64,000 nt of DNA from Promethearchaeia archaeon (GTDB taxonomy: Archaea; Asgardarchaeota; Lokiarchaeia; Sigyniarchaeales; SOKP01), in assembly GCA_029856145.1 (NCBI GenBank), contig JAHQWK010000001.1:585474-649473 (forward strand), in the 5' to 3' direction. The stretch's first letter is position 1; every line of letters begins with the position of its first letter. The position numbers and the translations under genes were made by a program. A model generated the notes under the pieces. The model did not search any database. It had not been told where the DNA came from and saw nothing but the letters and a program-made list of their open reading frames with translations. Positions 12,333 to 39,723 of this stretch are shown one piece after another.

Positions 12333-13988
12333 ATGGGAAGGAGATCTTGGATTCATCTTATAAAATCAAAAGAGGAAGCCTTCAGAATAAGAGAATTCAT
12401 TGAAAAGAGTAAATATTATATATTTATAGTCTGTGGTGCTTTAATTGAAGATTCGCTTAAAGATGTTTGGGGTAATAAATATGGTATTGATGGTATGATA
12501 ACTCCTGCATTATTAACACAATCAGATGGAAGCTCAGTAATTGAGGAGATGATTAAACAAGAAATAATATATGGGAGTAGAACTGTTGTACTAGATAATT
12601 TAATTTCAGAAGAAATTGAAGTAACTGAACACGGGTGGAAAATTAGAAAAGCACGTTATATGTCATCTCAAGAATTTTTTGATTATATAGATAAAGAGAT
12701 GGTGCCTAAAATTTCCAAATTGAGGAAACGTGAGGATCTTACCTCATTAGATATTAAAAAACAGATAATTTATTCGCTAAAACATGGTGATCATCATAGA
12801 TTACATCATTTAATTTTATATAAACTCCTTAGATTCTTAGATTTAGAAGATTTTGAAGAATTATGGAATAAATACAATTTAAAATTAGTTCGGCTTTTTG
12901 CTAAGGATATAAGAATACTTAGAGGTGAATTTTTCCAAGATATTACCTTTCCAGATAAATTCTCTGAATTTCTACAACAAAAAATTATTGAAATTATCAT
13001 TAAAGGAGAAAACGAGCAAATAGAAGATTTGATTTGGCTTAAATTATATCAATTTTTGGATGTTAAAGATTTAAAGACCTTACCAGAAGATAAACTCCTT
13101 AATTTTATTGAATTATTTTATACAACTATTAATAAAGTTAGATATGTAGATTACGTTATTGAAGAGATTGAAATATTTACTAAAAAAGTCGGGAATTCCC
13201 TATCTCCTTATTTTAGAAAACTTATTAAACACATAATTAAATCAAAGGATACAAATAGCATTTTAAACCTCATTCTTAATCGTTGGACTTACATGCTTAA
13301 CAAACAAAGTCTGATGGATCTTTTAAGGGATTCAGAATTAGACTTTTTTAACATTCTAATTAAAACAACGCAGGATTTAGGTGATTATTACGGATTTAAT
13401 AAAGAAATTGATGATACTATATTTGAGTATATTTTAGAGATAGTAACCCCTTCAGAAGCGGAAGCTCTGAAAGATTTAAAATCTTTGATTAAAGAAGGAT
13501 TTATTATTATGTATAAAAGAGATATAGATAAAGAAATAAATAGTATAGTGAAAAAAGATAATCACATAGTAAGTATAACCATTCAGGATAGTCAACTGGA
13601 AAAAGTTCCAGAGTCAATTGGAATGCTTGAATATCTTAAAGAGTTTGTAATAGAAAAAGCAAAAATAACTCATCTCCCTGAATCGATTGGTAATTTGAGA
13701 TCACTTAAAACTCTTGAAATACATTCATGTGGATTGAAAACAATTCCAAACTCTATAGGTAATTTGAAATCACTTGAGGAATTGTATTTAAATGGCAATA
13801 ATCTAGCAATACTTCCAGATTCAATTGGAAATCTACAATCTTTAAAAATTTTAGATTTATATGGAAATAATTTGAAGACACTCCCCTTATCAATTGGAAA
13901 TATTACATCTATAAATAAAATCAATATAGGAGAAAATCCTAATTTGATCTTGCCAAAGAGTCTGAATCAATTTAATATTAAAAAATAA
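12333..13988 (+). CDS. leucine-rich-repeat protein (C-terminal LRRs)
   Basis: About six 23-aa LP.SIGNL.SL..L.L..N.L repeats; AGGAG SD. Confidence 0.9.
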   Translation: MGRRSWIHLIKSKEEAFRIREFIEKSKYYIFIVCGALIEDSLKDVWGNKYGIDGMITPALLTQSDGSSVIEEMIKQEIIYGSRTVVLDNLISEEIEVTEHGWKIRKARYMSSQEFFDYIDKEMVPKISKLRKREDLTSLDIKKQIIYSLKHGDHHRLHHLILYKLLRFLDLEDFEELWNKYNLKLVRLFAKDIRILRGEFFQDITFPDKFSEFLQQKIIEIIIKGENEQIEDLIWLKLYQFLDVKDLKTLPEDKLLNFIELFYTTINKVRYVDYVIEEIEIFTKKVGNSLSPYFRKLIKHIIKSKDTNSILNLILNRWTYMLNKQSLMDLLRDSELDFFNILIKTTQDLGDYYGFNKEIDDTIFEYILEIVTPSEAEALKDLKSLIKEGFIIMYKRDIDKEINSIVKKDNHIVSITIQDSQLEKVPESIGMLEYLKEFVIEKAKITHLPESIGNLRSLKTLEIHSCGLKTIPNSIGNLKSLEELYLNGNNLAILPDSIGNLQSLKILDLYGNNLKTLPLSIGNITSINKINIGENPNLILPKSLNQFNIKK

Positions 13989-34194: not shown

Positions 34195-37167
34195 TTGACA
34201 ACCCAAGAACCCTTAGACTCCCAAGAACCCTTAGATACCGAAAAAATAGAGAGTTTAATTATAAATGGGTATAATGAAAAGGCTGCTGAGGAATTATTTG
34301 GAATTATTGAAAATTATAAAAACCATTCCGATAAAGAATTAATTTATCGAAGTCTTAGCTTACTAAATTTAATTTGTGATAAATCTCCTTCGATTTCGAC
34401 GAGATCAATAAAAAATTTAAATCAGTTTGTTAACGATTCTGATTCTTGGATTAGATTAGTTTCATTAGAAATCTCATATCAGATAAGTTTGTTTAGACCT
34501 AATCTCTTACTTGAATTACTTGAAAAAATTCGAGGACGTTTATATGACCAGGATCCTTCTGTAAGGAGACTAACTGTAAAGATCATAGGTAATCTGATCT
34601 TATCTTTATATATAGAAACGGGTGAATTACAAGAAATAGTTGAAGAATACACAGAGAAACTAATGGATAATGACTGGAAAGTTAAATTAAATGTAATTAA
34701 AACAATCCAGAGGGTTTTAAATCAAGATTATACGAAAATTCGAAATTTAGAACCTCTATTATCAATGGTAATTATTAATCTAAGAGATGAAGATGATGAT
34801 GTTGCTAGAGCAGCAGCAGAGCTTTTGAAAATTCATGGGACATATTTCTTGACGAAAGAGAAGATATTTTATATCTTATTAAACCTTCTCTATAATGAGG
34901 AGAATCGTGTTAAAGAACTCATTATTTGGCTTTTTGGAGAAATTGGTAAAGAAAAATCATCAGAGATAATCTCAATAATCCCAAAATTGATTAATATCTT
35001 AAAGGAAAAAGATTATAGAATTCAGTCAAAAATTATTGAAGCACTTGTCAATATTGCTGAAAATAATTTTGATCAAATTTGGGCAAATTTATTGCATTCT
35101 CTATTAGAAGCAAGTGATTCTAATTATAGAAATTCTTTAATAAATGCAATTTTTCATCTTTGTCGAAAAAATATTATTGAAATATTTCCATATTTGTTTG
35201 AGGAATTAGAAAATCCATCTGAAAATATTAGAGAAGGTATTGCATTAGTATTTAAACGTTTATTTGAAGAATACCAGATTGAAATAGAAAATGAAATTAC
35301 TAAAATCATCTACCAGTTAGAATCACGATTTTGGCGAGAAAGAAAGAAGACTATCATATTATTACAAAATACATGTTTTATCTTAGAAAGTAAAAAAATT
35401 GCGGTGTGGATTACAATTGAATTGAACAATGCTTTAAATATTGAAAAAGATCCAGAAGTTAAGGATGAAATCATTTATACATTAAAAAATATTAGGTCAA
35501 AATTTTCAGATATTGACGATACTATTGAAAGAATTAATAATGAATTATCCATATTTGAGAAGAGAATTGTCGAATTTCAAAAAATTCCTGCTCAATTTAG
35601 AGAAAAATTAAATTCATATATTCAGAATTTCAAGTTTAACGATACAGAGATTCAGTTAAATAGAAAGTATAGTAAAATTCTCAAAAAAATCAAAAAATTT
35701 GATAATATTATTAAAAAATTTGACTACAAAAGATTAGCATTCGAATTAGTCGAAGACTGGGAAGATACAAGAGTACAAATTATTGAAGAATTAAGTATTA
35801 TTAAAGGCTTCATCTCAGAAATCTGTGAAGAGAAAAAATCCGAATTTGTTTCGAATTTGAAAGAAAAAATTAATGTATTAACTAATCGCGTTGATGTTTT
35901 GAAAGCAGAGTTTGAATATATCAAAGAAAAAAAATTCGAAATTGAAATTGATGAAGGAGTATCTAATGTTGAATTTATCTATAGCCAAGATGATAAACTT
36001 GGATATATAACACAGATAAGAAAAAAATTATTTAAACTAGATGGTGATATTAGAGAATTACTAATAGGTAACGTTGAATTTAATGAAATCTTCAAAGATC
36101 TTCTGCAAAAATGGGTTGAAACTAAAATTGACATCCAAGAGTATTTGAATGACCTAGATCGCCAAATTAAATTAATGAAAGATAAACTGATCAATTATTT
36201 AACTCAGCCAGGAATAATTACTGAAAGTGCAAAAAGCACTGAGTTCAATGGAATTAGTAATGAATTAAGCTTTCAACTACTTCAAGGACATATACAATCA
36301 ATCATTACAGAGAGAATTGAAGGTATGAAAAATTTCAATGAGGATTTTACTAAATTAATCGAAAAACTTGATACCCTAATAAAAAAAAATGAATTTTCAG
36401 ATGCACAAAGATTACTAGAAATGAATTCAACCCAAATTCAAAACTACATCGAAGATACTGAAAAACAAATTGATGCAATTATAGGAAGAGAAAATGTATT
36501 TGAAGATAATAATGTTTTTAATTTATATATAAGACCCTATCTTAACAAAATTAATGCCTTAAAAGAATTATTAATAAATCGATTAAAAAATTTTGTTAGA
36601 AAATCTAATAATAAGCTATATCTAAATCAGATTAAATACTACCTCAAAATGATTAATCCCATTAAGTTAGATCTACTTGCTAATTATATTAAATTAGATA
36701 TCGAACGATTAAAAGACTTAGTTCTTAAATTTATAAGTAAGAATAAGTTGAATGCTAAAATTATAAATGAAAAATTATATTTCCAACAAATTGAATCCGA
36801 GATACATGACTCAAAAGAAATTCTCTTCTTTAAGAACATAAAGACAATCGGAAATGAAATTTATCTCAACTTTAAATTAACTAATCCCTCAAATTTTGAT
36901 TTCAAGGATTTGCAGATATCTCTAAAGGTACCCTCTTATCTTAATTTTCAACGAAAAGAAAGTTTTCCAAAATATCTACAATTAAATGAATTAAAACCTG
37001 GAAAGAATTTCCAATTCAATTATGTGCTTAAAGTAGATAAACAGAAAGAGCTTAAGAAAAACCTGTTTGACCCTTCGGCTGATGAAATTAAACTGGACTT
37101 ACATTATAGAGATGAATTCGATATTGCCCGAAAGACTACAAAACATATAGATTTATTTATTCGATAA
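34195..37167 (+). CDS. HEAT-repeat / coiled-coil / PCI-like / Ig-like appendage protein
   Basis: HEAT units (DSDSWIR, DQDPSVR, DNDWKVK, DEDDDVA, NPSENIR); PIKLDLLA..I....L...I....LNAKI winged helix; C-terminal beta-sandwich. Confidence 0.75.
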   Translation: MTTQEPLDSQEPLDTEKIESLIINGYNEKAAEELFGIIENYKNHSDKELIYRSLSLLNLICDKSPSISTRSIKNLNQFVNDSDSWIRLVSLEISYQISLFRPNLLLELLEKIRGRLYDQDPSVRRLTVKIIGNLILSLYIETGELQEIVEEYTEKLMDNDWKVKLNVIKTIQRVLNQDYTKIRNLEPLLSMVIINLRDEDDDVARAAAELLKIHGTYFLTKEKIFYILLNLLYNEENRVKELIIWLFGEIGKEKSSEIISIIPKLINILKEKDYRIQSKIIEALVNIAENNFDQIWANLLHSLLEASDSNYRNSLINAIFHLCRKNIIEIFPYLFEELENPSENIREGIALVFKRLFEEYQIEIENEITKIIYQLESRFWRERKKTIILLQNTCFILESKKIAVWITIELNNALNIEKDPEVKDEIIYTLKNIRSKFSDIDDTIERINNELSIFEKRIVEFQKIPAQFREKLNSYIQNFKFNDTEIQLNRKYSKILKKIKKFDNIIKKFDYKRLAFELVEDWEDTRVQIIEELSIIKGFISEICEEKKSEFVSNLKEKINVLTNRVDVLKAEFEYIKEKKFEIEIDEGVSNVEFIYSQDDKLGYITQIRKKLFKLDGDIRELLIGNVEFNEIFKDLLQKWVETKIDIQEYLNDLDRQIKLMKDKLINYLTQPGIITESAKSTEFNGISNELSFQLLQGHIQSIITERIEGMKNFNEDFTKLIEKLDTLIKKNEFSDAQRLLEMNSTQIQNYIEDTEKQIDAIIGRENVFEDNNVFNLYIRPYLNKINALKELLINRLKNFVRKSNNKLYLNQIKYYLKMINPIKLDLLANYIKLDIERLKDLVLKFISKNKLNAKIINEKLYFQQIESEIHDSKEILFFKNIKTIGNEIYLNFKLTNPSNFDFKDLQISLKVPSYLNFQRKESFPKYLQLNELKPGKNFQFNYVLKVDKQKELKKNLFDPSADEIKLDLHYRDEFDIARKTTKHIDLFIR

Positions 37168-37354: not shown

Positions 37355-38389
37355 ATGCAAGAAATTGAGAGTTATCGATTAACTTTACAGACTAAATTGT
37401 TCGGGTGAAATTGTAAATTATCAAGGGAAAAATTAGAAGAACTCCTGACTAATGTTGGACTAAATAGTGATTTTGAAGATTCTGCTCTTATCCCTGTACC
37501 AAACACTAATCTTGTCATGGCTAAAAATATAGATATATTCACACCTATTATTGACGAACCCGAAATTATGGGAGAGATTGCTGTTGCTAATGTTACCAAT
37601 GATATATTTGCTCTAAATGTCCCAGAAATATCTGGTATGCTCGTATTTCTAGGAATAAAGAAAAATATGCCTATGTACATAGCAGAAGGAATATTAAATG
37701 GAATCAAAAATTTCATGGAGAATAAACTAAATTCGAAAATTCTTGGTGGACATACAATATATTCAGAATGGCCATTAATAGGAGGAGAAGCCTCGGGATT
37801 TGTAGATAAGAGCAAGATTATTAAAAAAGATTTTGTGAAAGATGGTGATAAGTTAATTCTTACAAAGCCAATAGGAAATCAAGCAATTATGGCAGCATAT
37901 AGACTTCAAAAAAACAATCCAGAACTCTTGGAGAACTATTCTATAAACGAGATTGATGCGTCTATAGATCTGGCTGTGAAATTAATGATTACGCCTCTTC
38001 AAGATGTTGTAAAAACTATTCATACATATAATGATATTTCATTTATTCATTCAATGACTGATATCAGTGGTTTTGGTCTCGCAGGACATTTAAAAGAAAT
38101 GCTTCAAAATTCGCATCTCTCAGCAATAATCGAAAAGATTCCTAGTATTAAACTGACAAGTGATTTAGCTTATGAATTTGGATATAAATTTGATGAATGT
38201 GAAATGCCAGAAACTGCGGGTGGGATGCTTCTATCTGTTGATCACGAATTTGCTGAAGAATTTTCACAGCGACTTGATAGTGAATACGGTGTGGAAAATT
38301 GGATTATAGGCACGATCGATAACATGAATAAACCTAAACATGTTCGCGTTTCCAAAAACGTTGAGCATATTGAAATTACAAAAATTTAA
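37355..38389 (+). CDS. selD: selenophosphate synthetase, selenoprotein (Sec18), copy 1
   Basis: GAGGTG SD and ATG at 37355; RLT..K.FG-U(TGA 37406-37408)-NCK; ED.A, DIFTP, NDIFA, GGHT, LTKP.G, TDISGFGLAGHL, PETAGGML. Confidence 0.93.
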
Positions 38390-38461
38390 CGATGTCAATG
38401 AAATAAGCAGAAACACATCATTGTGAGCGCTTATTGAGAATTCTGTTGTGCAACAGCATCG
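38390..38461 (+). promoter_or_regulatory. SECIS element (eukaryote-like) of selD copy 1
   Basis: CGATG/CATCG basal stem; ATGA..GA core; AATAAGC/GCTTATT helix; AAA; CACA/TGTG apical stem; extra hairpin CTGTT/AACAG. Confidence 0.85.
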
Positions 38462-38621
38462 AATATAATTGGTTGTTTTTACTTCTTATTTTTATTATTA
38501 TTAGATTTATTTATCGATAGAATTGATAAATAATATCGAAAGTTTTTATAGATAGTTAGAATTTGATTTATTGACTAACTATTAATCAAAATTTAATAAA
38601 AATCATAAAAAGTTGAGGTGT

Positions 38622-39650
38622 ATGGACAAAGAAACAAAATATCGATTAACTACAGATGTAAAGATACACGGATGAAGCTGTAAACTCAGGCAAAACGATT
38701 TAAATGATTTATTAGCGAATGTGGGATTAGCGGGAGACATCGAAGATGCTGCGATTGTACCCATACCTAACAGTGATTTGGTTCTTGTGAAAAATATTGA
38801 TATTTTCACGCCCATTATTGATGAACCCGAAATAGCGGGTGAAATTGCTGCGTGTAATGTTACAAATGATATATTTGCAATGAATGTTCCTGAGATATCG
38901 GGAATGCTTGTATTCTTAGCAATAAGTAATAGAACTCCAATAAAAGTAGCTGAAGGGATTCTAAAGGGTATTAAGTATTTCATGGAAGAAAAGATAAATT
39001 CTAAAGTGGTTGGTGGGCACACCATTTATAGCGAATGGCCATTAATGGGGGGTGAAGCCTCTGGATATATACATAAAGATGCCATTATTCAAAAACAAGG
39101 AGTAAAGAAAGGAGATAAATTAATTTTAACCAAACCAATAGGATTACAAGCAATTATGGCATCCTATAGGATTCTTAAAGACTTTCCGGAAATGTTAGAA
39201 CAATATTCGACTGACGAACTTCAAAAATCTATAGATCTTGCTATAAAAATTATGACAACTCCTAATCAGAATGTTGTCAAAGCAATACACTCCTACGATG
39301 ATTTTTCATTTGTCCATGCATTAACTGATATTACTGGATTTGGCTTAGCTGGTCATACTGCTGAAATGCTTCAGAATTCTGATCTCTCTGCAATAATAGA
39401 AACCGTGCCCTCGATAAAATTTTCTGAAGTAATATCTCATGAGTTAGGATATGCTTTTGATGAATGTAGATGCCATGAAACTGCGGGAGGCATGCTTATT
39501 GCCGTTGATCCTACTAGTGTAGAAGATTTCACAACAACACTTACAAGTAATAAAATTTCTAATTGGATCGTGGGAACAATAGATAACGTTCAGCCGGGTT
39601 TAGTTAGGATTTCAGAGAATGTTCAAAATATTGAATTTACAAAAATTTAA
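38622..39650 (+). CDS. selD: selenophosphate synthetase, selenoprotein (Sec18), copy 2
   Basis: GAGGTG and ATG at 38622; RLT..K.HG-U(TGA 38673-38675)-SCK; same SelD motifs as copy 1. Confidence 0.93.
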
Positions 39651-39723
39651 AGATGTCGATGAGATAAGTTGAAACACTTTATAGTGGGGACTTATTGAGA
39701 ATTCCACTTGCATGGTGGCATCT
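39651..39723 (+). promoter_or_regulatory. SECIS element (eukaryote-like) of selD copy 2
   Basis: AGATG/CATCT basal stem; ATGA..GA core; GATAAGTT/GACTTATT; AAA; CACT/AGTG; extra hairpin CCAC/GTGG; compensatory changes relative to copy 1. Confidence 0.85.

Follow-up and report, generated by a model that had tools for sequence, protein, structure and literature searches.

A conserved third arm in the SECIS elements behind the selD genes of Asgard archaea

The SECIS elements of Asgard archaea have been presented in the literature as a bridge between archaeal and eukaryotic selenocysteine decoding. Two such elements, each behind a selD gene, lie in a stretch of 64,000 nucleotides from a Promethearchaeia archaeon (contig JAHQWK010000001.1), the whole of which is called the window here. 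An earlier note on this DNA had read them as a pair of SECIS elements with compensatory changes in their stems and with an additional 3' hairpin that would turn each of them into a three-way junction. The question raised by the locus is whether this hairpin is a genuine part of the element and, if so, what it might contribute to the reading of UGA as selenocysteine.

Translation with TGA read as selenocysteine (U) and Pfam matches to AIRS and AIRS_C identified both genes as coding for selenophosphate synthetase: selD-A (37355..38389, 344 aa) and selD-B (38622..39650, 342 aa). These and all other window features described below lie on the + strand. Each gene contains a single in-frame TGA (Sec), located at codon 18. 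The two are tandem paralogs with 63% identity. Of the 36 genomes of the genus that were sampled, 34 carry the tandem pair with both TGAs; elsewhere in the order and class, most genera have a single Sec-selD. Close relatives of selD-B came from MAGs named Promethearchaeota or Promethearchaeia, that is from Loki-type Asgard archaea. A tandem of this kind (37355-39723; L001-L030), each copy with a Sec codon and a SECIS of its own, also occurs in part of the genomes from a sister genus, and the duplication is therefore older than the genus. Both tRNA-Sec and SepSecS are encoded in the genome. Aragorn found one tRNA-Sec, with the anticodon TCA, at 12915-13007, and SepSecS is located at G000:C8:11546-12703 (-); the two genes would adjoin if they share a contig.

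SECIS-A and SECIS-B each begin at the base after the TAA stop codon of their selD gene. For both elements, the minimum-energy fold calculated with RNAfold was a three-way junction, in agreement with the genus alignment introduced below. SECIS-A (38390..38461) is closed by a basal stem P1 of 5 bp (38390..38394 paired with 38457..38461), which was paired in 90.6% of the cells of that alignment. U-C at 38395..38396 pairs with G-A at 38438-38439 and forms a short helix, referred to below as the C helix, followed by the segment 38397..38401 with a 3-nt bulge A-A-U and the G-A of the AUGA core, which would form sheared pairs with G-A at 38436-38437. Above the core, an upper (NC) stem of 7 bp (38402-08/38429-35) leads to an AGAAA bulge and a ministem of 4 bp (38414-17/38422-25). 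The 3' strand then runs through the core G-A, the G-A of the C helix and a 3-nt linker A-U-U (38436..38442) into the third arm P3 (38443..38456; CUGUU-GUGC-AACAG), which joins P1 without a linker. SECIS-B (39651..39723) has the same parts: P1 (39651-55/39719-23), C helix (39656-57/39699-700), bulge (39658-60), core G-A (39661-62 and 39697-98), upper stem (39663-69/39690-96), ministem (39675-78/39683-86), linker (39701-03) and a third arm P3 (39704..39718; CCACU-UGCAU-GGUGG) supported by RNAfold and the genus alignment. In both elements AUGA and GA flank the 7-bp upper stem, whose pairs covary in the genus alignment, and the apex consists of an AGAAA or UGAAA bulge, the 4-bp ministem and a 4-nt loop. 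The motifs quoted in the earlier note (AUGA, the AAA run, the 3' GA and GAGAAUUC) are present in both elements, as are the stems CGAUG/CAUCG versus AGAUG/CAUCU, CACA/UGUG versus CACU/AGUG and CUGUU/AACAG versus CCAC(U)/(G)GUGG.

The assignment as SECIS was borne out by the Sec-selD context and by the features of the type II eSECIS-like class. Both elements lie in the 3' UTR and have the core (A/G)UGA...(G/A)A with an upper stem within the range of 7-15 bp; their apex shows unpaired A's, a ministem within 2-8 bp and a small apical loop. They are members of the group described as SPS lokiSECIS (Mariotti et al. 2016, PMC4989117) and as Asgard type II eSECIS-like elements (Huang, Xiao & Zhang 2024, PMC11227280), with which they share the position directly after Sec-selD, the AUGA..GA core, the upper stem of 7 bp, the unpaired A's and the ministem. 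A search of Rfam at the gathering threshold and with E values up to 10 returned neither SECIS (RF00031) nor another relevant family for the window elements. According to PMC4989117 and PMC11227280, SECISearch3 likewise gave no match to Asgard elements.

Folding energy contributed little to the assessment of the hairpin. Compared with dinucleotide shuffles, the z-scores were -0.11 for SECIS-A and -1.91 for SECIS-B, which is not above chance. As folding energy is a weak criterion in an AT-rich genome, the evidence has to come from comparison, and comparison supplies it. In an alignment of 51 copies from the genus (A2), made with plain MAFFT and no structural information, 91.8% of the cells at the proposed pairs were paired, as opposed to 26-48% with slid partners. 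P3 alone was paired in 98.3% of cells and displayed double changes at three of its five pairs, with the states C-G/U-A in 32 and 19 copies, A-U/G-C in 27 and 23 copies and U-A/C-G in 30 and 9 copies. RNAalifold, run de novo on this alignment, calculated a three-way junction with the same three helices. When mutual information was computed over 70 family copies without any structural input, two P3 pairs came first and second among all column pairs, followed in third place by a pair of the C helix. Furthermore, RNAalifold on a plain alignment of an unrelated GC-rich family again predicted this junction, with compensatory changes at four of the five P3 pairs. Thus, the covariation of the stems and the three-way junction claimed from the two window copies were both recovered in wider alignments, and covariation of the extra stem was found in the genus, in the family and in the GC-rich family. 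When mapped on a coding-sequence tree of the family, the P3 pair states had changed at least 6-13 times per position. Tree-aware independent contrasts in the family were all concordant (P3: 4/0, 4/0 and 3/0; C helix: 3/0), but too few to be singly significant (p 0.125-0.25). Every helix of the element, P3 and the C helix among them, has been preserved by compensatory changes.

In the GC-rich family (f12; L078-L093), the stop codon TGA of selD doubles as the core UGA of the SECIS. The 5' strand of the basal stem and the C helix thereby fall within the coding sequence, probably the reason why the C-terminal peptide ..ETEFP is conserved.

A survey of the 3' ends of 110 selD genes, confined to the phylum, extended this picture. 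Of these elements, 97 parsed into the same plan and represented 29 genera, 8 families and 50 distinct P3 stems, while 13 failed automatic parsing. The parser demands perfect pairing of P3, so the pairing rate of the survey is circular; independent evidence comes solely from the shuffle controls and the structure-blind alignments. In 29 of 30 genus representatives, no more than five of 100 dinucleotide shuffles of the 3' flank matched the arm plus basal stem, and for 22 of the 30 none of the 100 shuffles was as good. P3 adjoins P1 with 0 nt in 82/97 elements and is separated from the core GA by 5 nt in 74/97. A covariance model built from the genus (R1) found the selD elements of other families with E values from 1e-10 to 1e-3; its wide alignment (A4) contained reverse-strand and spurious matches and was excluded from all counts.

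These data bear on the reading that the hairpin is a product of chance or a relic of the selD duplication, its likeness in the two copies being due to shared ancestry. The identity of SECIS-A and SECIS-B (84% over 97 columns) and the weak energy z-scores fit such a history, but 29 genera, as well as five non-homologous SECIS elements within this one genome, have a paired stem of unrelated sequence at this position, which makes it extremely improbable. We also considered a hairpin at the transcript 3' end, acting as terminator or in RNA stability, which lies beside the SECIS and has nothing to do with Sec insertion. T-rich runs do follow both window elements. On the other hand, a terminator scan found nothing at this position, P3 sits inside the closing basal stem with the spacing given above, and it is kept in the GC-rich lineages in which the SECIS overlaps the coding end. 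Moreover, matches to the SECIS core pattern that do not lie behind selenoprotein genes are without the arm. A 3'-end function in place of a SECIS function is therefore very improbable. P3 is a real, conserved third arm of the known Asgard SECIS. As a separate observation, T-rich runs follow SECIS-A and a TATA-like box precedes selD-B by about 60 nt, which suggests that the two genes are transcribed separately.

The core pattern just mentioned is a loose one with 100 matches in the genome, seven of which are true SECIS elements (the two behind selD and five of type I). When the 100 matches were ordered by the energy of arm plus basal stem, the true SECIS elements occupied ranks 1-6 and 8. Three of the type I elements lie behind vhuD/frhD-like genes with two Sec codons and one behind a vhuU-like gene. 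The third arm is present in all seven, with seven unrelated stem sequences. The hairpin, first noticed in the selD pair, is accordingly not selD-specific. Orthologs of two type I elements across the genus keep the arm; here it is conserved with little variation and does not covary. The fifth type I element, also with a third arm, lies 3' of a 158-codon ORF about 414 kb before the window (L174:1138-1614 (+) = G000:C9:170437-170913). This ORF has two adjacent in-frame TGA codons (..VVHAD-U-U-ADV..) and gave no significant Pfam match. In two genomes (L026:1421-1500 (-) and L065 (+)), the stop codon of selD-B is followed not by the usual type II element but by a type I SECIS, with a 9-bp stem and an A-rich loop of 11 nt that ends in AG. 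This element, too, has a third arm, and its basal stem measures 7 bp; SECIS types thus appear to have been exchanged between genes with the junction kept. Two further candidates were rejected. A match of R1 with E 0.48 at G000:C22:76071-76147 (+) (= L053:1501-1577) carries AAUA instead of AUGA and is probably due to chance; its three-helix outline is similar, and it might be a decayed SECIS. A core-pattern match on C20 behind a 404-aa ORF was judged a chance match, the ORF having no in-frame TGA.

The second structural feature that emerged from the comparison is the short helix between junction and core. In the genus alignment (n=51), columns 9-53 are U-A in 50/51 copies, and columns 10-52 are C-G in 34, U-A in 16 and U-G in one, with no copy unpaired. 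In the GC-rich family, RNAalifold paired UCC before the bulge with GGA after the 3' GA. The register was examined in the 97 parsed elements: with a 3-nt bulge, at least two pairs next to GA can be formed in 91/97, as compared with 11-14/97 for bulges of 2, 4 or 5 nt. The -1b.-1n pair is C-G in 69 and U-A in 20 of the 97. The second and third bulge positions are strongly conserved (L2 = A in 84/97; L3 = U in 96/97) and correspond to the A-U of AUGA. The stretch GAGAAUU, which the earlier note had regarded as an invariant linker, is no mere spacer, since its G-A pairs with the U-C upstream as the C helix. Judged by its sequence, the core is a standard k-turn whose C helix of 2-3 bp ends in the junction. 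It combines a canonical helix, a 3-nt bulge and tandem G.A/A.G pairs as in Kt-7, box C/D and U4 k-turns, and as in these the 3b.3n position is often non-Watson-Crick. In contrast to them, the core has a C helix of just 2-3 bp that runs into a three-way junction, and the kink is predicted from sequence.

The identity of the 3b.3n pair allows a prediction about folding. A Watson-Crick pair at this position prevents k-turn folding by ions alone, while G at 3n or C at 3b allows it (McPhee et al. 2014, PMC4382518). A permissive pair was found in only 19/97 elements; the pairs of the two window elements are A-U and G-U, neither of which is permissive. Most elements are thus predicted not to fold in ions alone, and extra stabilization by the junction or by a protein would be expected.

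How does this architecture relate to known systems? With eukaryotic SECIS elements it shares the AUGA/GA core, the A-rich motif above the upper stem, the type I/II apex and the location in the 3' UTR. Eukaryotic SECIS (RF00031) is described as helix I, internal loop, quartet, helix II and apical loop. The window elements differ in their shorter upper stem, in a core that reads as a plain k-turn with a 3-nt bulge, and in the third helix at the place where the written descriptions of the eukaryotic element have an internal loop only; in this respect the description of the hairpin as an addition to the eukaryotic plan was correct. For the Asgard elements themselves, the text of PMC4989117 and PMC11227280 models core, upper stem and apex only, and that of a 2026 review (PMC13188914) describes the same three parts. 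The region below the core is given as 'internal loop and lower stem' in these texts, in which 'three-way' does not occur and 'hairpin' does not occur for Asgard elements. Relative to this published text on lokiSECIS, the 'loop' region of the window elements holds a covarying 2-bp C helix and a covarying third arm. A literature search for SECIS together with 'three-way junction' yielded nothing relevant. The elements as such are known eukaryote-like UGA/Sec signals; what these published text models are missing is the third arm and the C helix.

Two other RNA classes were compared. Like a k-junction (Wang et al. 2014, PMC4005666; Li et al. 2023, PMC10573300), the element combines a k-turn with a third helix on the non-bulged strand. 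In a k-junction, the third helix lies opposite the bulge and is joined by about 2 nt directly after A1n (PMC10573300). In the elements studied here, the C helix (with its paired G-A) and three unpaired nucleotides separate P3 from A1n; we therefore rejected membership and regard the structure as a k-turn next to a junction, not as a k-junction proper. The euryarchaeal SECIS (eaSECIS) consists of two stems with a conserved GAA_A bulge between them and three S-S pairs in the upper stem. This class was rejected as well: the A-rich bulge has no constant G (column 24 of A2 shows G, A or U), and three consecutive G/C pairs are absent.

On its freely varying stem, the third arm carries a conserved loop. 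This loop reads G-Y-R in 92/97 copies, where about 32 would be expected from composition, and G-C-R in 81/97. The apex G-Y was found in 96/97 copies and in 49% of shuffled arms. The mutual-information scan of 70 family copies revealed no tertiary partner of the P3 loop beyond the helices and a paralog-linked background. G-N-R-A-like loops are common simple stabilizers of hairpins, and conservation of the P3 loop therefore need not mean recognition.

Taken together, the locus is very probably best explained by two working Asgard SECIS elements of type II, the usual form for selD, each a three-way junction of P1, the k-turn arm P2 and a P3 capped by a G-Y-R loop. Such an element would recruit the Sec decoding machinery and cause UGA codon 18, which lies some 1 kb further upstream, to be read as selenocysteine; the tRNA-Sec and SepSecS genes and the conservation of the TGA among orthologs lend this indirect support. 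In the model, the 5-bp P1 starts right after the stop codon and is followed by P2 with its 2-bp C helix, the 3-nt bulge N-A-U, tandem G.A/A.G pairs, the 7-bp upper stem, the A-rich bulge and the ministem. After the 3-nt linker, the 5-bp P3 with its G-Y-R loop runs straight into the 3' strand of P1. A C helix of 2-3 bp seems too short to stand alone, and P1 and P3 may clamp it so that the k-turn adopts and holds its kink. In addition, the archaeal SECIS reader, whether a factor or the ribosome, may find a second point of contact in the P3 loop. Since P1 directly follows the stop codon, ribosomes that terminate there should open this stem together with the 5' half of the k-turn. P3, about 55 nt downstream, should stay folded and could seed refolding. 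The function of P3 would accordingly be that of a scaffold, a docking site or both.

P3 might be purely architectural, clamping the junction without any sequence-specific contact, its loop being a stable cap. The need of the short C helix for support speaks for this, as do the many P3 loops that are GNRA-like and thus of a common stable type (GCAA, GCGA, GUGA) and the lack of a tertiary Watson-Crick partner in the scan. The conservation of the second loop base (C in 81/97, Y in 92/97) is narrower than stability alone needs, and many loops of the genus (GCAC, GUGC, UGCAU) are not GNRA yet keep G-Y. We regard a solely architectural arm as possible but rather doubtful. A somewhat better case, although one we hold to be short of even, can be made for P3 as mainly a platform to which a dedicated SECIS-binding protein or the ribosome docks, the k-turn alone being insufficient for recognition; the earlier note had suggested a protein-binding element, possibly specific to Asgard archaea. 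This reading draws on the conserved G-Y-R loop on a freely varying stem and on the 3b.3n pairs, most of which predict no folding by ions alone under the rule of PMC4382518. Furthermore, PMC4989117 and PMC13188914 state that SBP2 was undetected in Lokiarchaeota and that archaea lack SBP2. No candidate protein was found to set beside these arguments, and the selD neighbors in the window are unrelated. These comprise a HEAT/PCI protein, a MoCF domain protein and three ORFs without a Pfam match, and the Pfam search revealed no RNA-binding candidate among them. The more specific proposal that the archaeal SECIS reader docks on the G-Y-R loop is put forward tentatively; this reader could be a protein, the ribosome itself or an extended part of the Sec elongation factor. 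If the proposal holds, the archaeal ancestors of eukaryotes would have used a SECIS platform with three arms, built on a k-turn that depends on protein, and the arm would have disappeared from eukaryotes once recognition had passed to SBP2.

With the three-way junction as the conserved unit, search models limited to core, upper stem and apex would discard information, and comparisons with eukaryotic SECIS would need revision. The arm stem and the arm loop would provide two clean handles for binding and reporter work. A concrete prediction follows from the 3b.3n pairs, namely that folding of the k-turn requires either a protein or the junction.

The HEAT/PCI neighbor is a 990-aa protein encoded directly upstream of selD-A (34195-37167 (+)). 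It contains HEAT repeats, an adaptin-N-like region and a weak PCI match, and its architecture is eukaryote-like.
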